Assembly: GCF_032118995.1 (NCBI RefSeq)
Contig: NC_092652.1
Span: 27,299,339 to 27,363,338 of the forward strand
From: Asterias amurensis
Lineage: Eukaryota
Direction of reading: 5' to 3'
DNA length: 64,000 bases
Made by a program: the position numbers and the translations under genes
Part shown: in pieces, positions 15,905-56,640 of the stretch
Layout: each line of letters opens with the position of its first letter
How positions within the stretch are numbered: the first letter of the stretch is position 1
The notes under the pieces: model-generated
The model's input: the letters and a program-made list of their open reading frames with translations, nothing else
Database searches by the model: none
What the model was told of the DNA's origin: nothing

Positions 15905-15980
15905 CTAAGCAATACGTTAATCCGGAGGTCGTTGGTTCGAATCCCACTCTAGTCAAGTCTTTGTTCAACCTCAAAAATCA
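15905..15980 (+). mobile_element. 5'-truncated copy of the tRNA-Asn-derived SINE (anticodon arm to tail)
   Basis: cgttaatccggaggtcgttggttcgaatcccactctagtcaagtctttgttcaacc matches the SINE consensus and is preceded by a poly-C tract. Confidence 0.65.
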
Positions 15981-17379: not shown

Positions 17380-17698
17380 TCACAACCAACATTGCTCATC
17401 CCCTTCTGCAAACTCTCCATCACCTACCGACGATGCCCCAACATTTTCTGCCTCTTCATCACTATGGAGTATCGTCATGGCAACAGCTCCTTCCCTGACT
17501 GGGCTGGATAATTCTTGAAGCCCCTCGAGGGATCCTTCCGATAGATCTGCCGTCTTACGAGGTGATGATTCACTCTGGGTGTCGATGGTACTGCTACCGC
17601 TGTAGGTACGAGGGGTGGATAGGGAGGGAGGAGTCATTGTAGGGGATGTTGTTGGGGTTGTGGTTGGGGTCGTTGGGAACATGGTGGTCAGTGTGGGC
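17380..17698 (-). CDS. PIP5K1: PIP5K1-like gene, exon 13 (C-terminal tail; terminal if read through to the stop at 17380-17382; alternative GTAGGT donor would end it at 17428)
   Basis: Acceptor ttctcgcatcacag|G, phase-compatible with exon 12 (AG+G = Arg). Encodes PTLTTMFPTTPTTTPTTSPTMTPPSLSTPRTYSGSS...LHSDEEAENVGASS(VGDGEFAEGDEQCWL*). DRPTL matches the vertebrate PIP5K1B tail. Confidence 0.7.
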
Positions 17699-17910
17699 CT
17701 GTGATGCGAGAAAGATGGAAGGCAAGCAGCAGGCAATGTACATTAGTTATGACTAGTGTTAGTATAAACGATGATTTCACTAAATGAATACAAAATGAGT
17801 TACCAGGGCAACTATTTTACATAACATGTAATGAGTCTAGTAAAGTACAAATGAAACTAACTGTGAGCTAAATTCTAATCAACTACAGTTGATCCTTTTC
17901 ATCAATCCTA

Positions 17911-18565
17911 GTTTGGAGTGGGTAGCTATAGGGTTGAGAGTGGGTAGCTATAGGGTTGAGAGTGGGTAGCTATGGGGTCGAGAGTGGGTAGCTATGGGGT
18001 TGAGAGTGGGTAGCTAAGGGGTTGAGAGTGGGTAGCTAGGGGGTTGAGAGTGGGTAGCTAGGGGGTTGAGAGTGGGTAGCTAGGGGGTTGAGAGTGGGTA
18101 GCTATGGGGTTGAGAGTGGGTAGCTAGGGGATTGAGAGTGGGTAGCTATGGGGTTCAGAGTGGGTAGCTAGGGGGTTGAGAGTGGGTAGTTAGGGGGTTG
18201 AGAGTGGGTAGCTACGGGGTCGAGAGTGGGTAGGTATGGGGTCGAGAGTGGGTAGCTATGGGGTTGAGAGTGGGTAGCTACGGGGTCGAGAGTGGGTAGG
18301 TATGGGGTCGAGAGTGGGTAGCTATGGGGTTGAGAGTGGGTAGCTATGGGGTCAAGAGTGGGTACCTATTGGGTTGAGAGTGGGTACCAATGGGGCTGAG
18401 AGTGGATAGCTATATGGGTTGAGAGCGGGTAAATTTGTGGTTTAGACTAAGTAGCTAAGGGGTTGATATTAAGTAGTTATGGGGGTGAGAAAGGGTAGCT
18501 GAGGTATTGAGAGTTGGTAGCTATTGGGATAAGAGAGGGTAGCTGAGTGGTCTAGAGTGCGTAGT
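17911..18565. repeat. 24-bp minisatellite (GAGTGGGTAGCTATGGGGTTGAGA)n, ~27 units, degenerating at the 3' end
   Basis: Tandem array visible directly; intronic to PIP5K1. Confidence 0.9.
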
Positions 18566-18929
18566 ATAACGGCAACAATGACGTTGACAGCTCAGAGATA
18601 AAACATCCCTTTTCAGAGAATTTCAGAAATATCATCTTTGAAATTTGGAGCTCCTTGAAAAATGGACTGCACTGTTCGATTATTTTAGAAAGTTTGGTAT
18701 GGTTAGAAAACACTTAAGATTTCATATGGTAGTAACAAACTGTGATTATTTAATCTATGTTTTTGAGCACGTACTGTGAATGAGGATGTTTCAGATCTGA
18801 GTAAATGAAGTTTGGATTCTACTAATCAACTTAGTAACTAGACATATTGACATCATGCCATAAACACAGACCACACATACATACACTGTGTGATTAGCTA
18901 TGAACTATATATCAGTTATTTCAATGTAA

Positions 18930-19295
18930 AGGTAAGGTACACGTTTAATAGTTACTCAAAACAAATATTAATTTAAAAACTGACTTGGGAACAAGCATTG
19001 GAGAGCTGTTGATAGTATCAAACATTGTGGGAAACGACTCCCTCTGAAGTGATATAGTTTTTGAGAAAGAGGTAATTTCTCACTAAAATATTAAAAGACT
19101 TAGAAGTTTTAATCCTTTCTGAAAGCACACAATTAAGTCCAACAAAGGTGTTTTTTCTTTCATCATTTTCTCGCAACATCGATGACCAATTGAGCTCAAA
19201 TTTTCACAGGTTTGTTATTTTATGCTTATGCTGGGATACACCAAGTAAGAACACTGGTCTTTGACAATTACCAAATGTGTACAGTGCCTTTAATT
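18930..19295 (+). mobile_element. MITE family A copy
   Basis: Termini aaaggtaaggtacacg... and ...gacaattaccaaatgtgtacagtgcctttaat are inverted relative to each other. Internal sequence matches copies at 13795 and 37293. Confidence 0.7.
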
Positions 19296-19742
19296 AACTT
19301 TCACACAAGTTTGGCCTAATAAGCATCAAGTGGTTCAGGGTTAGTTAACTTACCGTTATTTATGGTTATTATTGATGAGTTAATTTGCAAATGAGCATGA
19401 ATGGAATGTGCGCCATTTGAAAGTGCGATTTAGAGTGCTACACATTGAACCAAAATTGCAACAAATAATATGTTGAGGCATCGCAGTTCATCAAAGCGGA
19501 ATTACACTGCACTAAGATTTGAAATAAATTTTAAGTGAAAACTAAATCCGGAAATTTTTCCTTCATTTTTTGTGTATAGTTTTCTAAATAGATTTGAGTT
19601 TATGTAACACAAACATAGTGACATATTTCATGGCCAAGTCTTTATAGCTTTTCCAACCGGCAGGGTAACTGTGTTCCCATATTATTTGGTTAAGCAGACT
19701 TTCTTGCTAATTAAAACAGACTTTCTTGCTAAGCATTCTCAC

Positions 19743-20025
19743 CTCTGGTTGTAGTCAAACTTTACATCCATCTCCCTTAGTTTCTGCTTAAGTTCTTCCG
19801 TAGCAAAAGGATCTTCTATCGTCTCCGTTCTTATCGTAATATCTTCAATTTCTACAACACCCCCGTCAGATGAGCTGTGAGTTGGACTCTCAAATTTAAC
19901 GATGGCTTCTTGACGCTTGCTGTTGCCGGTTTTCCGGTGTGCACTCTCCATTTCTAGGGCCTCACCATAATTTGGTGGAGTACTTGGAACGAGATCAGGT
20001 CTACCGAACTTGGGCTTTGCACCAC
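19743..20025 (-). CDS. PIP5K1: PIP5K1-like gene, exon 12
   Basis: Acceptor aaaactacag|GT, donor CAGAG|GTGAGA. Encodes GAKPKFGRPDLVPSTPPNYGEALEMESAHRKTGNSKRQEAIVKFESPTHSSSDGGVVEIEDITIRTETIEDPFATEELKQKLREMDVKFDYNQ. PDLVPSTP matches PIP5K1B. Phases match both neighbouring exons. Confidence 0.85.
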
Positions 20026-20354
20026 CTGTAGTTTTTACACACAGGTTAAAAAATAATAGAAGGAAATCCTTGATGTGTTCTTTTCATTTCTTTCGAGACA
20101 TTTATTTTTTCTTGGTTTTTGTCAACGCAATGCAGATTTATAAGCGAAATTGTCAAGAGAGAATAAAAGTCACTTGTGAAAGTTTCAGTTGAATAGGGTG
20201 CATACTTATACTTAAGGACGAGTTCCAGCCCTGCACTGTAGCATGTAAACCTTAAGATTAATCCCAAGTTAGGACGAGATAAGATTAATCCTAGCGTTTC
20301 GTGAAAGCAGCTGCAGTGCCTTTAAGATGATAGGCATGACCTTTTGAGACTTAC

Positions 20355-20537
20355 CTTGGCTGCCTTGTGGTAATGACCCGCCAGCTTCTAGCGTTGCTGT
20401 CATACTGCCCCCGTGTGTCCGATTAGCTTGCTGATTATCAGCCAGTTCTGCTGGGACGGTGCGCGCTCTCGGTCTACTGCCCCCTACTGATGGAGTATAA
20501 TTAAAACCTCTTCGTTTAGAGGGAGAATGTTTGGAAG
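20355..20537 (-). CDS. PIP5K1: PIP5K1-like gene, exon 11
   Basis: Acceptor ttgtctttcctccacag|C, donor CAAG|GTAAGT. Encodes SKHSPSKRRGFNYTPSVGGSRPRARTVPAELADNQQANRTHGGSMTATLEAGGSLPQGSQ. Phases match exons 10 and 12. Confidence 0.85.
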
Positions 20538-21089
20538 CTGTGGAGGAAAGACAAGGGAAAATTAGAAAACTTGATAAATGCAAAATTAATCCCTGAATCT
20601 ACACTTGATTGTTTTTCCTAACACTATAAGCTTAACCTTCAAGAAAGACTCTGCTAAGATGGAAACATCAGGCCATTAACTATTTTAAAAACAAAAATCA
20701 ACTAATTCTACTTGCTATAGAGTTACATGGACTACAAACCAGTAATAAAGATCTCATTTCAATATGGTTCACATTTTGAGAGAGAGATAAACAATTCTTT
20801 TACAGCAAGTTCTTTTTTATACAAACAAACTTTAAAGATGGTTTTGAATGCATTCTAATAACAGTGTCAACTTTTGTCAACATCTTGCACTGTTCTTGAA
20901 GATTGGATAAAATTAACCTCTTGTCAGAACCAGTATCATCCCTTTAAAGAAACAAGTGTTTGAAATACGATACTCAAGACAAATATTGCAAACCATTAGG
21001 GGAAGGGAGATTAACATATCGAAATGCCAAGCGAACTCATCCTAATAAAGATGCACTTTTCTACGTTTGATGAACCTCAGTAAGAATGC

Positions 21090-21190
21090 ACTTCTTTACA
21101 GTTCATGATTCTTACTTCTCTACAGTTCATGATTCTTACTTCTCTACAGTTCACGATTCTAAAGATTTACTTCGCTACAGTTTGTGAAAC
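21090..21190. repeat. ~24-bp tandem repeat, 3-4 units (TTCTCTACAGTTCATGATTCTTAC)
   Basis: Seen directly. Confidence 0.8.
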
Positions 21191-22719
21191 TGAGTGTAAA
21201 CTCAAAAGAATATAACCAAGTGCTAAACAAAAACCAACAACACAAAAATCAATTCCCAAAAGAAACAAAGAGGAAACAATATAGACCTTTCTATTGCAAC
21301 GTCATACATTCATCGCTGCAATAACCTATCTTTCTGAAAGTTTGTATATACTTAGCGTCTTGAGTACCTTGTTCAGAAGATACTTGCGCTATAATTGGAC
21401 TTCGATATTATTATGTTATGTAGTCAAATGTAGTCAAAAGTTTTTGTCATTCAAAATTGGAAAAATAAATGCAAAGCAAAAACAGATACAACAGTTTCTA
21501 ACAATGTTACTCAATTATTCAAAAATCATATTGTATTTTTTGTGGTTGAAAGTTTGCCGCAATGTTGACTTTGGTCAAAACATCTGCTAACATGATTGAG
21601 TGTTTTACTATCATCCGGCTGTCCATGGCAACCAGTGCAGTTTGTTTATCAACAATAAAAAGGTCTATAAAAGTCAACATCATTATAACCCCATAAAGTG
21701 ACTTAAAAATTACAAAATTTGTACTGAGAGAAAAGTAAGAAAAAACGTGCAATGATTTTGTTTTCAAAAACCAAGCCACTATTAAAGTGCTCAAAGAAAT
21801 TAATTACAAGTACATTACAGTCTTCTTAATTTAGGTAAAAAAGGGTGCACTTTAAAAATTAACAAACTTAATAAATAGAAACTACATAAATTTATGGGTA
21901 AAATTTGTTATTTATGTCAATGGTAACCATTAGTCGGTGGATTGTGTCGGTTAGATTGATTAACAATGTCATTCAAATTATTATGTACGTGGTTTAGTAA
22001 TGGTGGCCATGTTTTTTAGGTTATACTCGGATCACATGACTACTGATGACATCATCTGAAAAAACAACCTCTGACCAGGTCAAAGGTCAATGAGTTAGAG
22101 CTCTATTCATTCTCTGTGTATTTGGCATATTAAAGAGATTGCCCAATTAATTTTGGTACTGAAACTTTGTGGGGTGCGAGTATAATTAGGTGAGGTTTGC
22201 AGTAGCACCGTGTGTTAATCTCTTTGGGTATAGTGTTGAGTTGTCAACCACCGGTTCTTCTCAGAGACAGCACTACTCAAAGACATTGGACTTGTGCGAC
22301 CACTAACATCACTAAATAATTTTTGTTTATTGCCAGGGTTTTTTGGGGGTCAAAAATCATCCTACATTAGCAGAAACGTGATCATCTTTTACAGTTCTTC
22401 CAAGTTGGCTGTGGTCGCAGTCTAATGAATATGCTACAGACAGACATTTCACTAAAAAGTCCTCTGAGTAGATGATCATCACTTGTGCAAACCAAACTCC
22501 AGGATTTCTTATTGAGTTGTTAATTAATCCCTGTATTATGAAGTTGAACCAATCTGGATCCAAAGTGGAGGTTTCCTCTATTGATACATTACTGAAGAGC
22601 GCCCTCTATTGTTAAGCTACATCAATGAACAATCTACTACAGCCATGTCTGAATGAAGCCACTTTGGTTATGGCTACTGGCTATTGACTGCAGAACAATG
22701 TTGTAGAATGGGGTTCATG

Positions 22720-23110
22720 CATTACCCATAGCCAAAGCCGCTGATTAGGGTGTGGTTTAAAATACACCAAGATAAAGTATGCTCAATCGGTAAGGATTGT
22801 AAATGATTTGGGAGGCTAATCATCTTTACTACCAGCTGAGAATCTGAATTGCGAAGATTGGGGTCTACAACAAGTTTGCGCCCCAGGCATGCAAGGCTGC
22901 CCTTTGTCAGCCAGCCCGGCAACCCATATACGACCACAGAGCATGGCTAGAGATAAAAAGTGATTGGTATTTCCTGAGGGAGGAGAAACAGGGTGTCTCG
23001 AGAAAAAACCCTTGCTGCAGAGCAACATTGCACAACTCTACTCACAAATGGCCCCAGCCGGGATTTGAACTAGGGCGAGAGTGGTGAGAGGCGAGGACTT
23101 TATACACTAG
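22720..23110 (-). mobile_element. possible tRNA-related SINE fragment (minus orientation)
   Basis: Reverse complement contains ..gccctagttcaaatcccggctggggcca.. (tRNA 3'-half-like, T-arm GTTCAAATCC). No intact cloverleaf. Confidence 0.3.
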
Positions 23111-24635
23111 CCACCCATGCAACCCATTATATTGTCTTATTGTGAAACACGAGAACAAGTTTTGCTAAATAGAAAACAAAGGCCTTTAGTTTGTGATCCA
23201 GTTAAAAGTAAAGTAATGACAAAGTGAGTCAAGATGAACAACCGCCATTGTCTTCATAGAGAGAGCTAATCAAACCGATATAAAGAAGACCTTAAATACG
23301 CCGCAAAAAAGGAAGCAATGCAACATTTGCTTTCAAAAGAATGAGCTATTCAGTCAGAGCAGATACAGGCTTGATTATATCATTCTGTGAAATTAATATC
23401 AGCTTAAAAAAACATTTCACCAACGAAAATATGATGGAAAGTGATAAATGAGGGGGAACATACAAATGGATGAAAATGATACAGCTTTCTTGAAGATATT
23501 ACCATGTAATAGACTGGTATTAGTCACTCATCAATCATGCAAGGTCAGTAGCATCAAAAAGAGGATAAAAAATAAAACAGAAAAGAAAGAATAAAGCAAC
23601 ACACGCAAAAATGAGGTGAAAATCAAGTCACTCATGCGCAGGAGAACACAACACTCAAAGCTCAACCAATCAAGCTGTTTACAGTTTGTAAAAAACATGG
23701 ATATAAGAATCAGCAACAAACATTGAAGAATTGTTAAGCACTTCAAAATATATCACACTTTGTATTTTTAAATGTAAAACAAAAGCAAACACACTGGCCA
23801 TCTTAATGCCATCTTTTTGTTAAAAGTAAGATAAGGAATGAATTTTTAACCCTAGCAGTGTTCTGAACAGAATTTTTGGACTACATGTATGTATTGGTAG
23901 GGCTGATCAATTACCCTGTTTATAATGCATTTCTTATAGTCACACCAAGACCAGAAAATAACCTTTTTAAAAGTTCTTGTTGTGACCAAAATGAAGGTTT
24001 GAAGTCAGCTTTAGAACTTGTGCATGCCCTGACTGCAGTCATTGAATCAAGAATTTGTATCTGTATTTTCTAAAATATAGTTGAAATTAAAAGAGTAAAA
24101 TGCATGCCATAAAGGCACTGCTAGGGTTAGTTTCACACAGCAATCTGGTTGATTCTCAAGACAAATTAATATCCCCTTACACCCCCCCCCATGGCCAACA
24201 AGGAATCTGAGGCTGTGTTCGGATGTGTGACTGTGGCTTGGTGAACATGTGCTGAAGCATAGGATAACCATAGCAACAGCAATAGCCGTAGCCAACAACC
24301 CGCACACAGCCTTTTCATCTTCTCTTGACTCTGATAAAAAAATTGAGTCTAGCCCAAAGTAATAGGTGGCTGGTACCAAAGGTCAACAATTTTTATTTCT
24401 TTTTTGTTCTGCAAAACAGCAGACAGTCTTTGGTTAGTGTTAAACCATACAAAAACGGTCACTAGAAGAGTGCATTGGGCACAAGAAAAGAGAAACTTCC
24501 AATGTCACAATAAAAATTAAAGATTGTCTTTCAATCAACACTCATCAGCTGATAAAAATATCTGTTATCAATATACTGATTGACAGTTTTACTGGTTGAA
24601 TCCTAATCATCTTTTGGTATCTACTCTTGACTTAC

Positions 24636-37292: not shown

Positions 37293-37675
37293 AGGCAGTG
37301 GACACTATTGGTAATTACTCAAAATAGTTATCAGCATAAAACCTTACTCTGTAACAAGTTATAGGAAGAGGTTGATAGTATAAAACATTGCGAGAAATGG
37401 CTCCCTCTGAAGTGATGTAGTTTTCGGGAAAGAATTAGTTTTCCACGAATTTGATTTCGAGACCTCAGGTTTAGAATTTGAGGTCTCCAAAATCATGCAT
37501 CTGAAAGCACACACACAAAATTTGTGTGACAAGGGTGTTTTTTCATTCATTTTATCTCGCAACTTCGACGACCAATTGAGTTCAAATTTTCACAGGTTTG
37601 TTATTTTATGCACATGTTGAGAAACACCAAGTGGGAAGACTGGTCTGTGACAATCACCAATAGTGTCCAGTGTCT
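37293..37675 (+). mobile_element. MITE family A, complete copy with terminal inverted repeats and TTAA flanks
   Basis: 5' ttaa|AGGCAGTGGACACTATTGGTAATTAC...; 3' ...GTGACAATCACCAATAGTGTCCAGTGTCT|ttaa. No coding capacity. Confidence 0.75.
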
Positions 37676-37849
37676 TTAACCATAAGTTCCTTCTCATCAC
37701 CTGCATGTACAATATAGTGTATAAATAGGGATAGTTTTGTGTACTATTGAAAATGTGAAAAACACAGCCAAACATGCAAAGCATAAAACAATTGCAGCTA
37801 TGAGTGTGCTAAATTTGCTAATATTGCGCGATAGGTCTGAGCATGTGCC

Positions 37850-38000
37850 AAGAACTGTTAAAGACAGTGGACACTATTGGTAATTGTCAAAGACCAGTCT
37901 TCTCACTAGGTGTGTCTCAACCAGTTAGTCTCAACATATACAAGCCTGTTAAAATTTTAGCTCAATCAGTCATCGAAGTTACGAGATAATAATGAAAGAA
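37850..38000 (-). mobile_element. MITE family A fragment (minus orientation)
   Basis: ..aagacagtggacactattggtaattgtcaaagaccagtcttctcactaggtgtgtctcaacc.. Confidence 0.55.
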
Positions 38001-38339
38001 ACTGGCTATACATGTAGGTAGGTTATGCATACTTCAGCCTCAGATTCCCGCCATACAAATGAGTTGTCTGAACAATCCCATGAGGTAATACTTTTTAGTT
38101 AGCACACAGGCTGGAGTTGAATGCTGAAAACATAGTTTGTCTGCGGCCAAAATTTAATCAGTAATGGGACGCAGAGACACTATGTTTTTCAATATTCCAC
38201 TCGCGATTGTCAATAGCAAGTTTATCTTTATGCAAGCTTGATGCGTAGCTTACAATCGTGTAATTCAAGAAAGTATGACATTGTGAGAATAAATGTGCCA
38301 CTCCCAATGTAAATAAATCACTGACAGCAATTTTCCCTC

Positions 38340-39250
38340 TTGCCCTCTACCCATCCACCCAACAACCCTCCCTCCACTGAATTGATTCAAATGCAACTTT
38401 CTCCTTCCTCCACCATTTAATCACCCACCCATTTATCCACCCATCCTGTGGTACTGTAGTTTTGCCATCCCTCAGCCCTGCCCTATACCCAGTGATACCC
38501 ACCCACCGCTTCATCCAACCATCCTAATGCAATCCTCATTCCTCAACCTTACCCTATACCTGCCCACCCCTTCATCCACCCATCCTGATGCAATTTTCCC
38601 CTTCCTCAACCTTACCTATACCCACCTACATCTACCCCTTCATCCACCCATCCTGATGCAATTTTCCCCTTCCTCAACCTTGCCCTGTACCCACAAACCT
38701 TTCATCCACCCATCCAAATGCAAACCCACTCCTCAACCTTACCCTTTATTCACCCATTCTAAGATGCAGTGTTCCACCCTCGACATTACTCATACCCCCT
38801 ACCCATTCATCCACCCATCCAAATGCAAACCCATTCCTCAACCTTACCCTTTATTCACCCATTCTAAGATGCAGTGTTCCACCCTCGACATTACTCATAC
38901 CCCCTACCCATTCATCCACCCATCCAAATGCAAACCCATTCCTCAACCTTACCCTTTATTCACCCATTCTAAGATGCAGTGTTCCACCCTCGACATTACT
39001 CATACCCCCTACCCATTCATCCACCCATCCAAATGCAAACCCATTCCTCAACCTTACCCTTTATTCACCCATTCTAAGATGCAGTGTTCCACCCTCGACC
39101 TTACTCATACCCCCTACCCTTTCATCCACCCATCCTAATGCATTCCCACGAGTACCTCTTCACTCAACCCATCCAATGCAATCCCATTTCTCAACCTTTC
39201 CCTATACCCACCCACCCCTTCATCCACCCATTCTAATCTAATTGAATAGC
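38340..39250. repeat. satellite array: ~60-70-bp units grading into four near-identical 120-bp units (38700-39130)
   Basis: A CATCCACCCATCC(W)AATGCAA core recurs. The 203-aa ORF at 38527-39138 is only the periodic translation of this repeat. Confidence 0.9.
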
Positions 39251-39778
39251 AACCTACATTTCATTTTATTCCTGGATTTCTTTCCCACTCCGACATGGTT
39301 TCAATCTAAAGTAACACAAGGCGTGTGCCGTAGTAATGATGACATACAGATTGAAATCAAATGAGAAAACGCTGACCAAATGTATGCCAGCTGAAGACAC
39401 TGTCTGTAACAACATGTCGTACAACCCACTGAAGTCTTAGACTTGTGTTTTCTTGCGATGAGTAACCAGATTTGGTTTATGTCAGGCACCACTAAGCAGA
39501 GCGCTCGGGCGTGGCTTTTCTCAGCTAGCTCAGACTACACCCACAAGAGATGATGAAAATGCCACTTTGGACGGTCCCCTCCCTAAAGAATCAATACATC
39601 ATGTCGGTAAACCAGTTGAGAGAAGTATGCATGAGGAATTCAAAGCAATGTAGGTTGAGATGCAGTTTAACTCGAGGGACTTGGGTGAAGTCTATTTTTA
39701 AAACTGAAAATTTCTAGCTGAATGTGTGAGAGGCTATTATTTTGATACATTTAGAATACATCCTTTAAATCTTCTATC

Positions 39779-40566
39779 ATTGTTTAGGTTGGATTTATCT
39801 GACCATCCTTTTGTTATTTACTTTAGCACCTTTCCTCTTCGTGGTTGTGCTGGATTATATAATGAGGCACGCTTTACGAGGTATTCAGCAGGAAACAGGA
39901 ATTGTGCTTAAAGAAAGATAGAGCAGTCGTTATCCAGAGATCCGTCTCCATGATGTAGCACTCTTGTCAACATCAGTTGACACTGCAGAATCATTACTTC
40001 ATAGTACTGAGGAGGCTTCCAATTGTGTCGGTCTTCATCTAAACACAGGAAAAACGAAGACTCTCCTCGTGAACATTCCTCCAACATCCAGTATACAGAC
40101 TCTTGATGGTACGAAACTTAAAACTGTTTCAGATCTCAAATACCTCGGCTCATCACTACCTGACTCATTCCAAGATTTCAAATGCAGGAAAGCGCAAGCA
40201 TGGTCAGCATGTAACCAATTAGATAAGATCTGGAAGTCTGATCTTGACAGAGCTATCAAAATCAAGTTCTTCAGGGCCTGTGTTGAAAGCATCTTGCTAT
40301 ATGGAGCCGAAACATGGACAACAACACAAAAAGTGTATGACCGCATCAACGTTTGCTACACTCAACTGCTGCGTAGAGTTATCAACATCCACTGGCGGGA
40401 CCATACTACAAACGGGAAGGTTTATGGCAATCTACCACCACTTTCCGAGACCATAATGCAGAGACGTCTCCAGTTTGCTGGCCACTGTTTGCAAACAGCG
40501 GATCAACCTGATATATATCATTGTTTAGGTCGGATTTATCTGACCATCCTTTAGTTATTTACTATT
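39779..40566 (+). mobile_element. non-LTR retrotransposon RT fragment (RTE/jockey-like), truncated at both ends and degenerate, bounded by 48-bp direct repeats
   Basis: Encodes ..FLFVVVLDYIMRHALRG.., LHDVALLS (degenerate FADD box), ..GLHLNTGKTKTLLVN.., ..KIKFFRACVESILLYGAETWTT.., ..RRLQFAGHCLQ... The repeat atcattgtttaggtYggatttatctgaccatcctttWgttatttact occurs at 39776-39823 and 40513-40560. Confidence 0.7.
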
Positions 40567-41030
40567 GTACATAATGTGTCCTTTCAACATCTAACCTTGG
40601 TGATTCAATTATTAAATTATTCTACAAACAACGTGATTTTCTTTTTGACCCACTCAGCCACAATTTTGTAAAGCAACCAACATTTAAATTGGCCAACTAC
40701 AATGTACAGGTACTGTATGCCTCCCATTGAATGCTATACCGGCATGTTCTCATAAGATGAGCGTTGACGGCGCATGATTTCAAAGTCGGTTCAAAGCTTT
40801 TTATGAGTTGTATACGGTATTACACAGTTAAATTTAAATTGTACATTTTGAAAATTGAAATTTGCATTTTTAATACCTTACATGTAGGTCCTTTTGGTTT
40901 GTGAGCATTTTGCAATTAGGTACATTACTGTACATGTAGCTAATTATATTTTCTCAATTAATAATGCCGTTACTGAGAAACTGTAGCATGGAGGAACAGT
41001 AAATTTTAAAGTGAAGTTGCGAACAACAAT

Positions 41031-41776
41031 TCCCTCCATAGCCTTGCTCAAGGCAGTCGCATTATTCGCTCCGAAAAGACGCAGCTGTAAACCCACCCGC
41101 CGTATACCCTGTGCATGGTGTGTGCGATCACACCGAATGACCCACCCGTATACATACTGTCACATCGCACGAATACTGTTCACACAAGTCATCGCACTCG
41201 TACACCACTAACCGCATGCGGAGGCCGTCAGGCCGACAGCCTTGTCGGATCTGTATCTTCCCGTTTTAATGTGTTGTATTGAAAAAATTCCAATAGTGGA
41301 CGAAATTGGGGGGGCTCTAGGATATGCTAGTATGCAGCTCATGAATATGTATATCGTTCGTCAGACCTATCAGACAACACAGGATGTGAGGCAAATGAAT
41401 TATTCATTTTGACGTCCAATCACGCACTTCCCTTATCACGACCTTTGGACCCTATTATGTGGCCGTGGTGGTGGTGTGTGAGGTAAACATGTCTCGTCTT
41501 TCGCGGGCATTATGGTAATGAGCTGACCGTGGGAACTCTTCGCTTATTATAGTAATGAGGTCAGTGGCTTCAACACAGATCCTACAAGGCTGTCGGCCTA
41601 ACGGCCTCCGCATGCGGATAGTGTACGGGGGCATCGTGTCGTGCGATGTTACGCACAGTGAATACGGGTGGGTTTTACGCACAGTGAATACGGGTGGGTT
41701 TTTATACAGCGGCGGTCTTTTTTCGGAGTGAATAATTCGACTGCCTTGAGCAAGGCTATTCCCTCCATGATTATAT
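41031..41776. mobile_element. hAT-like nonautonomous foldback element: ~215-bp terminal inverted repeats, ~300-bp spacer, ~8-bp target-site duplication (TTCCCTCC)
   Basis: Left arm 41031-41260 (atagccttgctcaaggcagtcgcattattcgctccgaaaagacgc..) mirrors right arm 41560-41776 (..gcggtcttttttcggagtgaataattcgactgccttgagcaaggctat). Flanks ttccctccat on both sides. The two short ORFs inside are mirror images of each other. Confidence 0.7.
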
Positions 41777-44700
41777 TACCTTCATGGCATTTTCAAGACA
41801 TAAGTGTACCATCACCAGTGGAAGTGCACTGTAGCTGACACCAACAGAAACAAAAACAAGTAAAAGACGTCTCCACAAATATCCTAATTATGAATCTTGG
41901 TCAATCTAGCCTGTGGTTATTTGAACTGTATTGGCTAATAGGAAAATCAGCCTGCACTCCATACCTTGACATATTATGTTAACCCTCAAGGGTATAGACA
42001 GTCTGACCACACTGCTACACAGTGTGTGTTTAGAACGGAAACATAAGTTAGAGCAACGATGTACCTTTGCTGCAGACCATTCTATTATGTCACAACAATC
42101 ACAGAAATAAACCGATGGTAATTTTAATTCAATAACTGCTGTGCTTTACGATTGATTTTTGCTCGTTTTTTATTTTCAGTGTGTACACTAACAGTCTATG
42201 TGTGACATAGACAGGCAATGGAACACACAGCAGCTGTTTGAAGGGCAAAGCACATTAAGTCTAGCACTGCAAAAAATGCATTAATTCGCTAATTTGTTTT
42301 ATTTGTTTACTATTTTTGTTAAGTTTTTTATGCTAAATCAAGGCAAACTTGACTCTGTAATAGCCTGGCTAGTAGTGTACGTAAAACACTAGTATCCCAC
42401 CAATTTGAAATAATGATTTTATGTATGATTTTCAAGATACATTGAAGGTACTGTCATCAGTGACAACATGTCAGATTTGACACTGGCTAGACAACTGCCT
42501 GGCTGACTAGTCAAAAGAAAAAGTTAGCGTAATGTCTACGGTTTTTGCATGTCCTTCACTAACCGCTTGTAATTGTATCATACACAAAATACAATGATAC
42601 AGTACAATTAATGAAGATTGGTTCCCTCATGCTAAGAATAATAGTATTTGAAGTTAATGATTCAGTACACGGTATACGTATGTTGTACAGTGTAGTGCGT
42701 GAGGCATCAATAGTTAAGTACTGTAAATGACACAATAACTTTTGATGTAATAAAGCAAGCGCAATTAAATTAAAACTATCTCAATCAAAAAACTTTGTTT
42801 TGATCGTCAAGTGTAATGTAAAAGGGAAGTATTCTGCAATTAACATTTGGAATTAAAACCAAAACCCATCAAGTTGTTTGTTTAAAATTACTGAATGGTT
42901 TCTTTAGTTTACAAACCAACAAAGTCACTTGGCAAATTCACATCCTCACAGTGAATAAGACCTGAACAGAACCATCTAACAATTCGCCACTAGTGATTGG
43001 TTTTCATAATGCCAGTATAATGTTATCAGTCATGTTATGTTTCTGAACGGTGTAGATGGATTGGTCATAATCTAACCCTAAGGCTGGCTATTGACATGAG
43101 CACTGTATAGATCTGTCATACCCTGTCTGCATTTATAATCACATGTCACTCAGTATACTTTCTTATGGGACTGGTCCCAACAACTAGGGTAGAAACACCA
43201 TGTATGATGTATACAAATGTAGGCACTTAAATGTTCATCCATTTTCCCTCCCCATTTCTGATAAAGATTGAGAAAGCCCAAAATGTGCCAGCTACAATGT
43301 AAATGACAGTGTACATTTACTCAGTATGTAATTGTTGAAAAGAATGGTTATTTTAGAATGCAATGTCTGCACAAAAGAACCCATAACCCCTACATACAAT
43401 AAAAACTAAAATATAAATCATGACTTTTAAACCCTTTCATGCCTCGTTTATTTTAAGGATAAAATGATCACTTGTACACAACAATTTTTTACTTAATTCT
43501 CTTGCAAATTCATTTACCCAGGTACATTTACATGTGGACCAAACTGGCGTTTGGGTCCACTTGGAGCAAGGGTGTGGTATGCATCGTGTGACTGCCCTTT
43601 AAGGATGACTAGTTTTTAACCAGCAGACTGCATTTCTACTCAAGCCTGGTGTTATTTCTTATCAATCCATCTTCATATAATTTACTTGTAAATCATACAG
43701 ACAGGCCTTGAACTTTATTCATGAAGCATGTGAATAACACTGGTAATTTGTCATAGACCAATGCCCACATTGTACATGTATGTGCCACAACATACATGAA
43801 AGAAAGCTTGTGAAAATTTACAACAAAGGCTCTATCAGTCTATGAAGACAGGTAAAGGTTGTGTCACTGTTTTCGACCAGCTTTGATCTCGCAAGATCAA
43901 AGCTGTTTTCAAGAAAAATATTTAAAAGGAAATTTTCTACCGTGGCAATCTTTATACTGTGTGGAACTCTGGTGACATTTATATTGTTAATCTTATATTG
44001 TTAATGTTGTGCAAACCCACAGATCTATTCTTAAACAATAATTCTATCGATTTGTAAATGGTATAGCCTTGGAAAAATAGACTCTGCTACGTACATGTAA
44101 ACGTAGGGTCGCAACATCTAATCAGGCTGTTAACCATTTTCCTTTTGGTTTTAAAAGCAACTGGCAAACTTGCTAAATCTATATTCTGATTTATAAACAA
44201 AATTCTTTAAAAGCACATAAATTTGGTCTAAACAATGAAAATGAGCTACCAAGGCTTTTAAATGCTCAGCCTTTCAAGCACTTCTGCCTAAAAATATCGA
44301 CCTCCCACGCTAGCATCAGAACGATGGATGAGAGATGATTTAGACTGGTCCCTTTTCATCCCCTATGACTCATCACTTTTAATGTACTGTATGCAGTCAG
44401 GGAATAAGTTCAAAGATGATGACTTGAGAATAGACAGTTGATGAGTGGTTTACATCCGCAATGCCAGATGGCTGAAGTTAAATGACTATAAAACAACCTT
44501 GATTTAACCCCAAAACATTATTAATTAATAACAAATAGAAACTCCTAATTTGCATAATATTACAGTTAGGCCTATATACATGTATTATTGGCTGCAGTCA
44601 ACAACAAAAACTGTTTCTGTCTTTAGAGATGGTTAGAAAATGGATAATAGTGTTTTTGTTTTGTAGCATACATGTAGGAAGTTACTTTAACACAGTTCTC

Positions 44701-46169
44701 GGCTTCCCAAAACGAATTGCAGTATATTTTTAAGCTGGCACTTATGAATGTTATAGGCTAATAATTTACACATGCAAACCTGTAGTGACATGAACTACCG
44801 TTATGCGGGGTTCTAAATTTGTATCTCACAATGAATTATTAAATTAATTACTTTATAATGTTTATTACATACGTATACACTGTACATGTATTTATTTGGT
44901 TCCAAAATGAATCATCCTTGGAATGATGTGAGTTATCTTTTATTTTCTTCAATGCCTGAGGTACATTTATCATTGGGAAGTAATAGATTACTGCACATAC
45001 ATGTAGTAATCACTATGAATACAATGTACAATGTACATGACCATCATCCATAAGGCATTAAATCTTGTCTAATGCTGCATGCAAATCAAATGACTTTGGC
45101 TTCAGCTTTGTCTATCAATGACAACATTGAAGGTGGGCAGTCATAGCCACATTGGAAACCATTAAATCCAACCAGGCCCAACAGCTCCAGCGGCAAATGT
45201 GTAATAATCTCATGACCTGTATTGCCTACACCATATGGCCAACTTTAATTAACATAGGATTCACACGGCTACTATAATAACAACTATATGAACCTATGTT
45301 ATTAATTAAATTGCAAGGTGTTCAAGTTATAAACAACCTTGCTTCTGCAGCCCTTAATAAAATTGTAAAAACCTGAACAACTGAGAGATGAACAATTGAT
45401 CTATAAATAACTCACTTTCCTTCAAAAAATAAAAGTATTGATTTTTAGAGAAATTGACAGATTTAAATATCGGTTTTCAACAAAATGATGACATATTGAA
45501 AACATCATGTGAATACTAAAGACAAAATGACAATTTTTAATGTATGATTAATTTAAAGGGACTATTGTCATTATCAAAACATGCCTGTGGCTGTATATGG
45601 AATTATAAACTCTTGCTCAGTTACCGCACAAATTCGCGCCCTCTCAAAAGCATTATTCAGAGGGAGCAGGTCCCGCATGTGCAGTTTATTATTTCATGAA
45701 CCACCACAGGACTGCTTTGATCAAGATGACACAGTCCCTTTAACGAGAATTCCCCAGCTTCATTGTAGAGAGAATGTCAAACTGTAAATTGAAGAGCAGC
45801 AATTACTTGGATTTTCTACTTTTTCAATTATTGAACGGTTCAATAAATGAAAAAATAGAAACCATTTCACCCGACATGACCACCTTTGATTAATCGTGGT
45901 TGCGCAATTGTGTAGTTAGTGCATTTAACTATAGCAACGCATGTGAGATAGATGCACACAATGGCCAATTTTTAAAGCACTGCTTAACAGTAAGCAGAGT
46001 AATTTTGCACACTATTTCTATTGACTCTAAAAATGACGTTCAATGGGCAGAAATCAAGGGGTCAATACTTAGTAATGGAAAATAAACATTGAACAGGCAC
46101 GCCTTACAGCCAAAACAACAGACACTAACAATAAATCTTGTTATCATTCCTAGGAGAAAAAGAACTTAC

Positions 46170-46259
46170 CTTCTTATATGTTGTTTCCCCTAAGGTGTCA
46201 ACCCTCCTGTGACCAATCTTCTTCTGTCTTGGGGTAGTTGGTCCATCAAGAACAGGACT
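46170..46259 (-). CDS. PIP5K1: PIP5K1-like gene, exon 2
   Basis: Acceptor ctgtttttttctccctttag|A, donor AAGAAG|GTAAGT. Encodes SPVLDGPTTPRQKKIGHRRVDTLGETTYKK; PIP5K1 has ..IKKIGHRxVDSxGETTYKK. Confidence 0.9.
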
Positions 46260-46335
46260 CTAAAGGGAGAAAAAAACAGCAGATAGACAAAGATTGAGAC
46301 TGAGCTTTTCAAATGTAATGCACTGCTAGCCAGCA

Positions 46336-46580
46336 AATAAAAGACACTGGACACTATTGGTAACTGTCAAAGACCAGTCTTCTCACTTAGTGTATCCATT
46401 TCAATATGCATAAAATAACAAACCTGAGATAATAATGAAAGAAAAAACACCTGTGTCACACGAAGTTGTGTGCTTTCAGATCCTTTCAAATTTCAAATTC
46501 GTTGGAAATAACTTCTTTCTCAAAAACTAAGTTTCTCCACTGGGAGCGATTTCTCACAATGTTTTATACTATCACCAGCA
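46336..46580 (-). mobile_element. MITE family A fragment (minus orientation)
   Basis: agacactggacactattggtaactgtcaaagaccagtcttctcacttagtg... The spurious + ORF at 46466-46690 includes ERFLTMFYTIT, the same motif seen in other copies. Confidence 0.6.
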
Positions 46581-46889
46581 ACCCTTACAATAGAACAATG
46601 AATAGAAGAAAAGATAAAGAAACAAGATTGGTCAGTGTTCACCAGGCCAGTTCCCAAACTACAACTTGTGACAGACCAGTAGGCCAATAACATGATTTTT
46701 GTTTCAGACAATAGACCGATCCATTAAGCTCCGCCCCATTGCGTATTGACCAATCACAACGCAAAGAAGGTCCGACACTAAGGTCTGACATGCGTGCAAC
46801 ACCAGGATTTCAATGTGATACCAACTGTTATCTGATTAGGATGTTATTATTATTTTATTTGCCAAAACGTACAAAACAATATACAAGAA

Positions 46890-47340
46890 AATATACCTCA
46901 AGATGGGCGAGGGAAAACAAAAGTTACCAGAGTAACATGCCTGTGATAGTTTTTCACAGGAATCGGGAAAGTACTGAGTATACAGTGCTAACACACATCG
47001 GTGTATGGGTAAAAAACTAAAATTAATATTCTTTATCCCTGATGCAAATTCAACATCTATTATATCGTTGCGGTACCCGCTGCCAAAACATAGGATTCGA
47101 ACTGCCTCTAGCTGCCGGGCAACCTCGGTGGTCTAGTTGGTATGACACTGCTCTAGAATTGCAAGGGTCGTTCGTGGGTTCGAATCCCACCCGAGTAACA
47201 TGCCTGTGATATTTTTTTTCTTTTTTCACAGGACTCGGGAAAGTACTGAGTATACAGTGCTAACACACATCGGTGTATGGGTAAAAACCAAAATTAATAT
47301 TCTTTATCCCCGATGCAAATTTAACATCTATTATAAAAGC
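46890..47340 (+). mobile_element. cluster of tRNA-related SINE family 3: a tail-only copy (46921-47045), tRNA-like heads (47046-47200), then a full tail (47195-47335)
   Basis: Direct ~130-bp repeats gagtaacatgcctgtgat...cacaggaMtcgggaaagtactgagtatacagtgctaacacacatcggtgtatgggtaaaaaMYaaaattaatattctttatccc. Between them ..ggtggtctagttggtatgacactgctctagaattgcaagggtcgttcgtgggttcgaatcccacccgagta (T-arm GTGGG-TTCGAAT-CCCAC). Confidence 0.6.
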
Positions 47341-48354
47341 AAATACATACTATGATCCGTAGATCTGTTGCCCCACATCTTTGAGGTTTGTTATAAATAA
47401 TGAATACCATACATTACATACCATCATGTACATGTACATAAAGTCCAATTGCAATAAGAATAAAGTATTGGCTGCATTGGGGAAAAAAATCACAGTGAAA
47501 TGTCTCTCAAAGTCAAAGTACGAAAAAGTTTTCATAAAGATCAGAGAATCACCAGATCGTAAACCCCCTTTTAATGGACCTGAGAGGATTCTGTCCGATA
47601 AAGAACCAACCAAAGTCACCCACAAATTAGATCGATCATCATTCAGAGCTTAGGATTAGGGCTGCCAATGAGGCCTTCTTCCTGACCCAAAGGTAATTCT
47701 CCTTCTGATCATGCCAGTAAGTTTTGGGGTGTCATGGCCCTTCTGTCTAGGGGCGGTGGCCTCATGTTTTGTAATTTACAGAAATGTGGGTTCGGATCCT
47801 GACATGATCAGTCACAACACTTCTGTCCTTGAGCAAGGCACTATATCATAATTACTTCTCTCCATCCAGGAGTATAAATGAGTGTCGGTGAGAAATATTC
47901 TGCGATAGACTGACATCATGTCCGGGGGGATACAAATATTTTCATTTGCCAAGGAAACCAGACATTGGCCTGATAGTCACACAGGCTTGGAACATACTTG
48001 TTTTTTATTACCTTGATAACACATTCTTCAATTCTTTACTTTTAGGTACACAAAAATAGTACAGGTTCCATGAATTCAAATCAAATGAAAAACTTCCCAT
48101 TTCCGCTGAAAACTTTTGTTTCACTAAAATGTACAAAGATTGAGTGATTCAGGCGATGCACATAAATGGTTTACTGTTAATTTCAATTTCCTTGTACACC
48201 TGGTCAAAATTGCTTACACCACAACTGTACTCAAGTGGAGCTTCAGGTGAGAGTATGTTTGGAATCTCATCTAAGCCTGTGGTAAAGCTGTAAAGATATC
48301 GATTAAAACATTGACAACTTATTAACTATGAACAACCCACTTATTAGATGGAAA

Positions 48355-48480
48355 TTTGCATCGGGATAAAGAATTTTAATTTTGGTTTTACCCATTACAT
48401 TACATACATGTACACAGATGTGTGTGAGCACTGTATACTCGGTACTTTCTTGAGCTATGTGAAAAAAATCACTGGCATAT
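48355..48480 (-). mobile_element. SINE family 3 tail copy (minus orientation)
   Basis: Reverse complement reads ..cagtgatttttttcacatagctcaagaaagtaccgagtatacagtgctcacacacatctgtgtacatgtatgtaatgtaatgggtaaaaccaaaattaaaattctttatccc. Confidence 0.6.
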
Positions 48481-51455
48481 TCCTCGAGCAACCTAATCTC
48501 TTGAGTAAATCTGAACCTCAAATGCCTAAAAATTTGCCAACTCGATTAGAATTTAAGGCACTTACACTTCCATCCATAGTTGATGCTCGACTTTTATACT
48601 TCATGGATGATCCTTTATCTGAGAAGGAAAAGGAAAACATCAAAACAAAACAAAAACCTGTTAGATTAGTTGACATTGAAATGCAATTAATGCCATTTTC
48701 CTTTCTGATGTGCAAATTAAGTCAAACAAATTTAACAAAACAAACAGTTGATGTCACATTCTTGGTGTACATTACTTGGTCACACCCAATATTCCAACCC
48801 TAAATCTGTCAACTACAGTGTGTTGTGTACAGTTACAAAGTAGCAGTATGCTAAAATTAGATATTTGATCCGATATTTTGGAAATTTATACGTGTTAAAG
48901 ACTTTAATTGTACAGCGAACTAAAACGATTTTCCTCATATAGCAGAGAACAATGCTATCCAAAATGTATCCAGTGCTACCCCAAAACCACCATTTGCCAC
49001 TCAATTATAAACATTCAGTGTGCACAAAACTTGTTCAGTCTAAACATATTGCTAAACAAAATTGCTGGACGAAGTATGTGCCTGATATATAGTACATTTA
49101 GGCTGGGGGACTAGTGAAATCAGTGGAAGCTACACAACTGGTCCTCCTGGCTAGTCACCAACAGTTCAGGACAAACTCCAGACTACATGTATTGCCAGTA
49201 AACTTGCTTTAAACACCAACTTTCCATTTTCCTAGACAGACGGTACCAAAATATGAAAGCATTCATCCCACGATGGACAGTGAACTGTATCTACCTGGTC
49301 AGTCTTGCATGAGTGCCCATGGAATTTCTATTGACCTTCAAAATGCCAAAATGGTTTCTCAAATAAGGTCAGATTCACAAATGATGACATTGTGCTCACC
49401 ATTGTGCTCACCTACAATCAGTGTTGTGTTGGAAAGTGACTGGGCACAAAACAGCACGTACATTGTAATAAAAAAAATCGCATACACCTACATGTACATG
49501 TACAGTTACACTTGTAAACATTTATACTCATCTTGACATAACTAATTAATAACAAGAAATATCAAAACAAAAACAATGTACCTACTGCCACTTTATTACA
49601 TATTACATGAAGATAAAAACAGACTGTGTGAAAAAAATAATATGCTACAGTATGTGTGTGTATCTTGTCTGTGTGGTATTTGTTTACTTCTGGGGTCATT
49701 CATAAAAAAAAGGGGAAAAAAGAGACTAATGGGAAAAGCCCCTGGTACTTTACAAAAGTCTACAAGGCATGTTTTTTCCATTTTCTTTTCCTCAAACGTT
49801 AAGAGCCATTTCAAAATTACCATAACTTAAGAACCTCAAAACCAATTTTTGCCAACAAAATGGACCATTGGGACCTTCAAATTTGAGTTGTTTTAACGGC
49901 CAGAATATTGATATCATGCCCTATTTAAAGATAACACATTCTTGTCCTAGCAGGCCCTTCTCACTACTGTACAGATAACTTTGAGATTACAGACCGGATT
50001 GTAATTTTTTATAGAATCTCCTATTAGATCAACACAAATACTGACTTTGGACTGCCACATGATCAACAAGAGGGGGTGTCACCGTGTCTAATAAAATGCA
50101 GTGGGTGAACATGACAGGTCCATTAAAACACTAAACAGTACACCCATGAGCGAATTATTGGGATACTTCCTCACTGTAACAAAAAAGTTAACACCATGGA
50201 CTTTTTCGCAATACTCAGGTGCGCATTAGGCGTGAAATAAGGTGCATTCTGGGATAACAAGGGATCAAATTGGATCCATAGCTATCCCAGAATGCACCTC
50301 ATTCAACAGGTGAGCTTGCGCAACACGCCCAAACAAAACATGGTGCTTGATTTTGAATTGTTGGGGTGGTAAGCGTCAAACTCAACAATGCAAAACACAC
50401 TGTGTTCAAAACCTTAAATCGCAAAAACCATGATTTATCACATAAAAACATCAGAAAGTAACAAAATTACAAACTATAGGAAGACCTCATAATAAATAAT
50501 ACTCATACAAAAATTGGTCTAGAATTTTCAAAATTTTGGTTGATACCTTTTAAAGGGTTTTGATACTTTATCCGAAAATTTGCCTTTTGCCCTGGTTTTG
50601 AAACTCGTTCTTAGTCTTTTAGGAGAACTAGTGCACATGTGGGAAGGTGGTCTGTTTTTTTGCCCATAATATGTGCAGATAATTTCCATTAAATATAAAT
50701 CTGTGCACCATAAAACTGCTATCGACACGGACCAGTATCAACTCAAACCACAGGAAAACCAAACTATCACTAGGAAATCATCATAAATTGCGTTCACCCA
50801 CCCTTCAACCATTAAAGACTGTTACAAATTCTCTTTTGTTCCAAGATCACTCGTTGAATGGAACCGCCTACCAGTATGTATAAGAGAAGCTCCTTCAATA
50901 GACTCATTCAAAACTAGGCTAGATAAAATCCAAATGACCACTTTCATGAGGGGAGCTCACCACTAATGTTTTCCACTTGCCACACCACACCTGCAACTTC
51001 CCTGTGAGGAGTTTGTTGCAGTTATTCGACATATAGGCACACAGTAATAGACGTAATTTTACAAGCAACTTGGGTTTTGGCTTGAATGAGCCGCATAAAG
51101 CCGCACTCTAATGCTGCTATACGACCATGTGTGGTTCACTGAAGAATGATGCAAAAAGTTTATGTACAAGTCTGTGCCGCATGCAGTATTTATGAGAAGA
51201 AAACAAATTGTTTTGTGCATTCAAAACATTAAATTTTAAAGTGTGAACAGCACCTCAGGTGGAAACTAATCTATAGACTGTACAAAACATTGAATGCGAG
51301 ACAAATTACTGAGTTCAAGTTGAACAATATAAAAAAGTTGAAAAACTATACAAAAATAAAATGCTATTTGATTCACATCACGATTTGTGAATGAATGTTT
51401 TGAATGCAGCTTGATACACACACATAATAATCGCACCTTCACAGCGCATAGATGC

Positions 51456-51608
51456 GATAACGAAACCCTCCTCCCGACAGCAGAGACAGTGGGTTACGAG
51501 CCAAATTCAAATGTAAAGGGCGAAATGGTCTAATTAATCAATCAACAGATTTGCTCAATTTTTACCACTGACACAAATTCTAGGAGGGGGGTTACATTAT
51601 CGCAACTA
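51456..51608. mobile_element. MITE family C (~150 bp) with GCGATAACG-type terminal inverted repeats
   Basis: 5' gatgcgataacgaaaccctcctcccgac ... 3' ggaggggggttacattatcgcaac. Same termini as the palindrome at 55595-55668. Confidence 0.6.
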
Positions 51609-52629
51609 CCAGAATAATGAGGCATATTCAACGTTGTGCATTTTATTACTACTTAATATAATTATCTCGAAGTGTTGATACTAATTGAAAAGGGAAAAGT
51701 TTCCGCATGCCGCCACCGTTTTTCATTTCATATGAAATAATATTTCAATTCATTTACCTTTCTTTTTAATGAGATAGGGGAAAAAGTGGTGGCGCTATAC
51801 AGAAAGTTACCCATAAAAAGTATACACAAAATTCCATCATGAAAACCTTGACCCAGTAAACATTGACCTTTGACCTGGGTCGGTACTAATAAAAATTGTT
51901 ACAAACAATAGACTTTGCAAACATTTTCTTTTTTGCACCACTCCGTAGTCCGACTGACTTTCACACATTGTTAATTGTTTTCAAGTACTTACTACTATTT
52001 CCTGATAAGGTTCGTTCTCTTTCCCTTTCCTGCCCTAATCTAGTCGCTGCTGGAGTGTCGGCGTCTGCCATTTTGTCACCCGTTTAGAAAAGAACACAGC
52101 AATTTCTACAAAATTGTTACATTCACATACGCAGCACACACAGTCTTTTTTTGTGTACAAAATACGGCCTCCGCCCGTCGCCTCACGTGTGTGTTGAACT
52201 ATTAAACTTCATAACATTTCCGTCTGAACATTCAGTTCACTCTCATGGAATTCACAGCAATAAAGATTCCTTCAGGTCGCCGACTTTCATTATTTTCACA
52301 TCTTTTCTGCTAAAATGTTGTATTTTTATCCCGATATTCCTCGGTTCTCTACTTGTCAATTACCGGAAACTAAACCTGTAAATGTTGGCTGGTTTCCATG
52401 TGTGCTGTATATTCCAATACATTATTGAATGGTTTATCGAGTACCAGTTTAGTACCGGCCTCTTTCTTGCCCGAACATCTGACGTCATTACTTTGAAGCT
52501 CGTATGATAAAGACAGGGGACCAGTCTAATAACAAAGACGGTCAAAGCAGTGTTCTTTCAGCGCCCTCAACGATGTAAATAACTTTATTTGATGCTGACT
52601 CAAGTCAATGTTCAGTGATTTTCCACTTA

Positions 52630-52659
52630 CGCTGAGTTTGACCCCCGGATTGGAGCACA
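52630..52659 (-). CDS. PIP5K1: PIP5K1-like gene, exon 1 coding part (ATG plus 9 codons); 5' UTR extent unknown
   Basis: ATG in aaaaATGt context preceded by an in-frame TGA two codons upstream. Encodes MCSNPGVKLS, then donor CAGC|GTAAGTGG. Phase 0 join to exon 2. A short N-terminus is consistent with PIP5K1B-like proteins. Confidence 0.6.
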
Positions 52660-56529: not shown

Positions 56530-56640
56530 CCGCCAAAATAGGGCTATAGATAGTTCAGCTGGTAGAGCGCTGGCATGTTAATCCAGAGGTCTTTGGTTCG
56601 AGTCCCACTCAAAATTTTCTTTGTTCAACCCCATTTCCAA
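56530..56640 (+). mobile_element. tRNA-Asn(GTT)-derived SINE monomer (intronic)
   Basis: gggctatagatagttcagctggtagagcgctggcatgttaatccagaggtctttggttcgagtcccactc + tail ttctttgttcaacccc. Anticodon loop ATGTTAA (GTT). Degenerate acceptor stem, so not a functional tRNA. Confidence 0.65.

Follow-up and report, generated by a model that had tools for sequence, protein, structure and literature searches.

Described relatives of the gene reported here include the vertebrate type I phosphatidylinositol-4-phosphate 5-kinases (PIP5K1A, PIP5K1B and PIP5K1C) and, at a greater distance, the type II kinases PIP4K2A, PIP4K2B and PIP4K2C. Within this family, the catalytic residues are the Lys of IIK, the Asp of MDYSL, the Asp of IID and the DLKGS motif, and PIP4K2s carry Asp or Glu four residues after the arginine of the DLKGS motif (PMC4570271). 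Here, we analysed a stretch of 64,000 nucleotides of the sea star Asterias amurensis (the window; assembly GCF_032118995.1, contig NC_092652.1, positions 27,299,339 to 27,363,338), in which an original prediction made from the letters alone had chained 13 minus-strand exons into a complete-looking PIP5K gene. We conclude that this gene is almost certainly the Asterias type I phosphatidylinositol-4-phosphate 5-kinase, with 14 constitutive coding exons, an alternative terminal exon and five tail isoforms. The gene was already known, being computationally annotated in RefSeq for two Asterias species, where the name "alpha-like" is a best-hit label and not a statement of orthology.

The encoded isoforms have 665-760 residues, laid out as a short basic N-terminus, the PIPK catalytic core, a variable insert encoded by exon 9, the activation and specificity loop, and a long disordered tail rich in Ser, Thr, Pro and acidic residues. 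The single Pfam domain is PF01504, whose profile is covered from position 4 to 287 of 288 (core, E=1.4e-92; full protein, E=1.2e-97), and the PDB entry of zebrafish PIP5K1A (4tz7) is matched at E=8e-155 with 518 bits. The type I identity originally proposed is right, and the landmarks named for it, PDLVPSTP included, are all present.

Exon structure and the start of the coding sequence

On the minus strand, the constitutive coding exons extend from 52071 to 17380; the alternative terminal exon occupies 12241-12208. From 5' to 3', followed by the first exon originally proposed, they are:

51993-52071, minus strand: coding part of exon 1, encoding MADADTPAATRLGQERERERTLSGNS plus 1 nt and beginning MADADTPAATRLGQERERER; Kozak context gacaaaATGG; donor AGTA/gtaagta, phase 1; in all five RefSeq isoforms
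48566-48618, minus strand: exon 2, (N)KGSSMKYKSRASTMDGS, also written KGSSMKYKSRASTMD; pyrimidine fraction 0.9 before the acceptor; donor AGT/gtaagt, phase 0; exact in RefSeq
46170-46259, minus strand: exon 3, SPVLDGPTTPRQKKIGHRRVDTLGETTYKK, the SPVLDG exon (exon 2 of the original prediction); 3' intron position and phase as in Saccoglossus
36563-36693, minus strand: exon 4, ending FFP(S); donor AAG/gttaaa, weak but canonical
36098-36215, minus strand: exon 5, starting (S); junction to exon 6 present in an intron-less copy (see below)
29206-29358, minus strand: exon 6, FIIKTV...GYYM; G-loop and ATP-binding Lys of IIK
27816-28115, minus strand: exon 7, DLKGS...LQRDCR; 300 nt in a single unbroken frame
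27024-27101, minus strand: exon 8; catalytic Asp of MDYSL
26160-26437, minus strand: exon 9, the variable insert, RNENNSTDG...AFSTTREAIQG...EDEEEP; acceptor used 26437; exact in RefSeq
25583-25666, minus strand: exon 10, NGGIPGKNFKGERIELFIGIIDILQCF(K); Mg-binding Asp of IID
24636-24769, minus strand: exon 11; activation and specificity loop
20355-20537, minus strand: exon 12, PSKHSPSKRRGFNYTPSVGGSRPRART...GSQ(G); alternative acceptor of isoform X3, first base 20486
19743-20025, minus strand: exon 13, GAKPKFGRPDLVPSTPPNYGE...KFDYNQ; donor GAG/gtgaga, phase 2
17380-17698, minus strand: terminal exon 14, ending GDEQCWL and stop; acceptor 17698, the one originally chosen, for X1, acceptor 17599 for X4, and an internal donor after 17428 used in X2
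12208-12241, minus strand: alternative terminal coding exon, (S)DGKKGVEPSS and stop in X5, immediate TGA in X2
52631-52660, minus strand: MCSNPGVKLS, first exon of the original prediction; in no supported coding model, 560 bp upstream of the real start codon

From these coordinates, all five RefSeq isoforms, X1-X5, can be rebuilt residue for residue; the 760-residue model equals XP_071787883.1 and the 727-residue model XP_071787886.1 letter for letter (Asterias "PIP5K type-1 alpha-like" X1 and X4). Splice sites are canonical and phases consistent throughout the 14-exon model, and the frame is open, with neither stops nor frameshifts, over 2,283 coding nt.

Much of the earlier exon chain stands. 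Its minus-strand location was right, every quoted peptide being found where it had been placed (DYNQRPTL, which is not found in one piece, spans a splice junction), and tblastn of several homologues put its exons 2-10 and 12 in position. Extended to the flanking stops, the segments join, all through AG/GT sites, into a 13-exon model that is open over 2,112 nt and of which exons 2-13 are canonical, consistent and right. The first exon is wrong and two real 5' coding exons were missed, which brings the constitutive count to 14; the model described as complete thus starts with 10 spurious residues where the true N-terminus has 44. The proposed ATG has its A at 52660 rather than 52659, and the frameshift marked in the core is absent, both peptides being contiguous in one frame within the 300-nt exon at 27816-28115 (with FYGLY adjacent). 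At the other end, the gene runs beyond 17380 to the alternative terminal exon.

Phase agreement had been offered as a strong internal check. The phases do agree, but the check is less stringent than claimed: exon 9 has three in-phase acceptors (the one used and further AGs at 26380 and 26368), two exist for the last exon, and in-phase candidates for the first exon number in the dozens. For exon 9, the choice is fixed by an intron-less copy (L002) in which coding exons 5-9 are joined without introns at ~91% nucleotide identity: four successive junctions are exactly as modelled, and the exon 9 start falls at 26437, not at the other two AGs. This copy is a 1.7-kb contig of another assembly (JACSEG010016447.1 of GCA_014845345.1), whose positions 184-1111 correspond to window 36294-26235. 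The match opens with ~79 nt of intron sequence ahead of exon 5 and stops in the middle of exon 9, where unrelated sequence follows. Possible sources are a retrocopy that was partly processed, contaminating cDNA or a chimeric assembly.

With the exon 7 peptide as query, a full HMMER search supplied long echinoderm and hemichordate orthologues, and the N-termini of the Diadema (P0165) and Glandiceps (P0166) proteins were aligned to the upstream region to find the 5' exons. This alignment placed MADADTPAATRLGQERERERTLSGNS at 52071-51993; Diadema exon 1 (MADTTTENAKQRERERHSSESS) is similar to it and has the same donor context and phase. In a scan for an exon entered in phase 1 and left in phase 0, 48618-48566 came top for similarity as well as for splice quality, and its (N)KGSSMKYKSRASTMDGS matches Saccoglossus KKGSSIKKKERPPPID and Diadema KNASIKLPSRTRPLD. 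Both 5' coding exons are conserved in Diadema, Saccoglossus and Glandiceps. Another candidate for a missing 5' exon, "RPPPLD" at 47762-47745, was rejected, as no in-frame donor follows it.

It is very unlikely that the 13-exon model nevertheless represents a genuine extra isoform, initiated at the ATG at 52660 and spliced straight to the SPVLDG exon. The site has an A at -3 and a GTAAGT donor, its phase 0 fits the acceptor at 46259, and it lies within a CpG-rich zone at 51-56.5 kb. However, 75 candidates that begin with ATG, end at a GT in phase 0 and have a positive donor score lie between the window end and the SPVLDG exon; this one ranks ~40th of them by donor score, with a C at donor -1, and is immediately preceded by a short upstream open reading frame (ORF) of 5 codons in a strong Kozak context. 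Moreover, MCSNPGVKLS is unlike the N-terminus of any orthologue, found no homologue and occurs in none of the five annotated isoforms; models built on it have no exact match in the protein collection, and its use would omit two conserved coding exons. Coding therefore begins at 52071 in the model we prefer, and 52631-52660 is 5' untranslated region (UTR) or promoter sequence. The CpG-rich zone was also considered as evidence for the promoter; it fits exon 1 at 52071 but is not decisive, because a 242-residue ORF at 54312-55040 on the plus strand sits within it.

This ORF, upstream of PIP5K1, has no Pfam match. It shows marginal similarity to a reverse-transcriptase fragment in one of the introns, and by eye it may resemble the C-terminal part of ORF2 of a retrotransposon lacking long terminal repeats (non-LTR). 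A scan of bacterial promoters and terminators, irrelevant to a eukaryote, gave no enrichment over shuffles.

Conservation and kinase class

In the sister species Asterias rubens, XP_033624185.1 (isoform X4, 760 residues) has the same architecture and is identical at 759 of 760 residues, the lone substitution being SDKEAEN versus SDEEAEN. At 54-68% overall identity, Diadema PIP5K1A-like X1, Saccoglossus P0001 and the Glandiceps protein are collinear with Asterias from the first exon to the C-terminal WL, with shared intron positions and phases, N-terminal ERER and KxxS[IM]K...[LIM]D motifs, and the downstream motifs KHSPSK, [RK]PD[LI][LV]P[SN]TPP and SGSSTxDTxSESSPRK. When the Saccoglossus protein was mapped onto its own locus (L001, GL015958.1) for intron comparison, nine consecutive introns proved to have the same position and phase as in Asterias. 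Orthology to ambulacrarian PIP5K1 is further supported by the exon 1 donor and the last-intron acceptor, both common to Diadema. Some differences exist: two exons that are single in Asterias are split in Diadema, a small extra exon that follows the ...RK(I/M)P exon in Diadema and Saccoglossus was not found in the window, and the Saccoglossus RefSeq model has no tail.

That the locus is a non-functional pseudogene or a decaying PIP5K1 duplicate is exceedingly improbable. Nothing specific speaks for this, although the exon 4 donor (gttaaa) is weak and transposable-element insertions are many in the introns. Yet the weak donor, AAG/gttaaa, corresponds to AAG/gtacag at the same position in Saccoglossus, the 2,283 coding nt hold neither stops nor frameshifts, the catalytic residues are all intact, and A. 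rubens differs at a single residue. In addition, identity to Saccoglossus at the first, second and third codon positions is 0.81/0.91/0.46 (332 gap-free aligned codons), so that third positions are far more diverged than the other two, a pattern that reads as the signature of purifying selection.

As for the class of kinase, the catalytic residues K189 (Lys of IIK), D317 (Asp of MDYSL) and D449 (Asp of IID), and D254/K256/G257/S258 of the DLKGS motif, are invariant in an alignment (A1) that sets Asterias beside sequences of sea urchin, hemichordate and, for vertebrates, primate and bovid origin. The activation loop, KKLEHTWK, is that of type I; positions 460, E461 and H462 are invariant in the same alignment, W464 is present, and the Leu and Trp described as critical in the amphipathic helix of this loop (PMC5262455) are kept. 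Four residues past the Arg of DLKGSTYKR stands a Lys, in line with the basic or neutral, rather than acidic, residue of type I kinases at this place (PMC4570271). The Glu of KKLEH, likewise kept, is reportedly a determinant of type I substrate specificity (Kunz et al. 2002, cited in PMC5262455). There is next to no chance that the gene encodes a type II PIP4K or a type III (PIKfyve-like) kinase, which have the PF01504 fold and motifs in common with it (and, in PIP4K2A/B/C, the same catalytic residues), because PIP4K2B reaches 171 bits and PIKfyve 62 against 518 for PIP5K1A, the loop of the type II enzymes is another one, and these carry the acidic residue after the DLKGS arginine (PMC4570271) where Asterias has Lys.

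Compared with the zebrafish PIP5K1A catalytic domain (PDB 4TZ7; PMC4570271) and vertebrate PIP5K1A/B/C, the Asterias core is 67-71% identical, and activation loop, catalytic motifs and DLKGS motif are shared. The initial homologue search seemingly covered proteins of up to ~1.75x the query length (maxima 604 residues for the 345-residue core and 336 for a reverse-transcriptase query), and for this reason the 727-760-residue Asterias orthologue is not among the core matches. The core search returned PIP5K1 proteins only; among the matches listed, Saccoglossus was best at 83%, and the best vertebrate matches were gamma-type (70-71%), with alpha at 67%. The Saccoglossus match had pointed to a hemichordate origin of the DNA, which was rejected when the intronic retrotransposon proved to match A. 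amurensis and the whole protein to be identical to that of Asterias. The resemblance to vertebrate PIP5K1A/B that had been pointed out is thus correct at the level of the family, but the gene is an echinoderm one with gamma-type proteins as its best vertebrate matches. Outside the core, GRPDLVPSTPP matches GRPDVLPQTPP of alpha and GRPDLLPCTPP of gamma; short motifs excepted, the insert and tail are unrelated in sequence to vertebrate PIP5K1, and the talin-binding WVYSPL sequence is absent from the Asterias protein. Since our searches found a single PIP5K1 locus per echinoderm or hemichordate species, the Asterias gene is probably the pro-orthologue of the vertebrate alpha, beta and gamma genes; tests for a specific affinity to vertebrate PIP5K1A or PIP5K1B, and for a vertebrate origin, supported neither.

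Some points must be set against our account of the locus. The RefSeq models with which it agrees are themselves computational predictions (XP_ accessions), and the exon model is predicted by sequence comparison and comprises the coding exons. Phosphatidylinositol 4-phosphate (PI4P) 5-kinase activity is likewise predicted, on the strength of the family.

The tail and its isoforms

Differences between the isoforms are confined to the disordered tail and arise from alternative 3' splice sites and terminal exons. Relative to X1, they are:

20486, minus strand: acceptor in exon 12, used in X3
17599, minus strand: acceptor in the last exon, used in X4
12241-12208, minus strand: terminal exon to which exon 13 is joined in X5, giving SDGKKGVEPSS and stop
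17428, minus strand: donor after this position, joined in X2 to the exon at 12241, with TGA at once

The second terminal acceptor, 17599 (cctacag/C GGT AGC AGT), lies 99 nt inside the last exon of the original prediction and corresponds to the last intron of Diadema, which is in phase 2 and directly precedes S-GSST. Since KHSPSK, GA[KR]PK..RPDLVPSTPP and SGSST[IL]DT[QN]SESSPRK run collinearly in the Diadema protein and the window, and both proteins end in WL, the last three exons originally proposed are real. Counterparts of the exon 13 tail motif are GARPKEPRPDLVPSTPP in Diadema and KPDILPSTPP in Saccoglossus. A search of the 4.1-kb intron found no cassette exons of the Diadema or Saccoglossus type, and a homologue search with the 266-residue tail gave no matches, an uninformative result given that it covered proteins only to ~1.75x the query length.

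The Saccoglossus model P0001 (L001 90848-91910) ends ...TPYTN and stop, its last splice entering, out of frame, an exon that encodes in frame VKPDILPSTPP... (107 open codons). As the tail is long and ends WL in each of Glandiceps, Diadema and Asterias, this 3' end looks mis-modelled or affected by faulty assembly; after it, at ~92.4 kb, comes an N gap.

Vertebrate PIP5K1C also has alternative C-terminal exons, and its splice tail (...ERSWVYSPLHY) binds talin and AP-2. In Asterias, Diadema and Glandiceps, the PIP5K1 tails have an acidic stretch and then Trp-Leu-stop (CWL, VWL and TWL; window 17380-17430, minus strand), an ending present in X1, X3 and X4 and absent from X2 and X5. One could speculate, though we consider it unlikely, that this ending is a docking motif conserved at the C-terminus and corresponds, in ambulacrarians, to the PIP5K1C splice tail; its inclusion (X1, X3, X4) or exclusion (X2, X5) might then switch partner binding. 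The support consists of three sequences and a two-residue motif, which chance, or simple common descent without function, could also explain.

Introns, neighbouring sequences and significance

The introns had been described as reaching 9.5 kb and as packed with repeats, and in substance this is so. The longest measures 9,476 bp. Copies of at least one interspersed family (~400 bp) are spread over several introns, and short hairpin elements occur as well, along with the following:

17916-18544: satellite, 22 bp x 28, intronic
38701-39142: satellite, 105 bp x 4, intronic
39964-40554: reverse-transcriptase fragment, intron 3; 91-93% identical to A. amurensis proteins
47122-47198: head of a short interspersed nuclear element (SINE), transfer RNA (tRNA)-like, intronic

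The longest ORF in the gene region, with 203 residues at 38527-39138 on the plus strand, was dismissed as an artefact of the 105-bp tandem repeat and not a gene. The block at 1-5.5 kb, rich in GC and CpG, holds an intact 462-residue ORF (2116-3504, minus strand) with a zinc knuckle of the CCHC type (YCHRCGNEGHIAKGC). Its PNMA/gag-like Pfam match is weak (E=1.5e-4, below the curated cut-off), and it is probably the gag of an LTR retrotransposon. Pfam searches of the other long ORFs in the window gave nothing beyond weak PNMA and DUF6451 matches. A tRNA-Asn(GTT)-like sequence lies at 9686-9758 on the plus strand (Rfam, 51 bits), with related copies at 15914-15976 and 56575-56637. Its 3' half and downstream sequence recur at two other places (repeat family D9), which suggests a tRNA-derived SINE family rather than, or besides, a real tRNA gene.

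The value of this work is methodological. Exon chaining by eye recovered the conserved core correctly. An ATG, a GT and a matching phase are insufficient to identify a short, poorly conserved first exon, and where in-phase splice sites stand in tandem, phase agreement cannot discriminate between them. The biological weight of the locus is small, as that of a housekeeping phosphoinositide kinase gene. Judging from the biochemistry of the family, its product would phosphorylate PI4P at the 5-position to yield phosphatidylinositol 4,5-bisphosphate (PI(4,5)P2) at the plasma membrane, and the amphipathic helix of its activation loop would act as a sensor of membrane and substrate.

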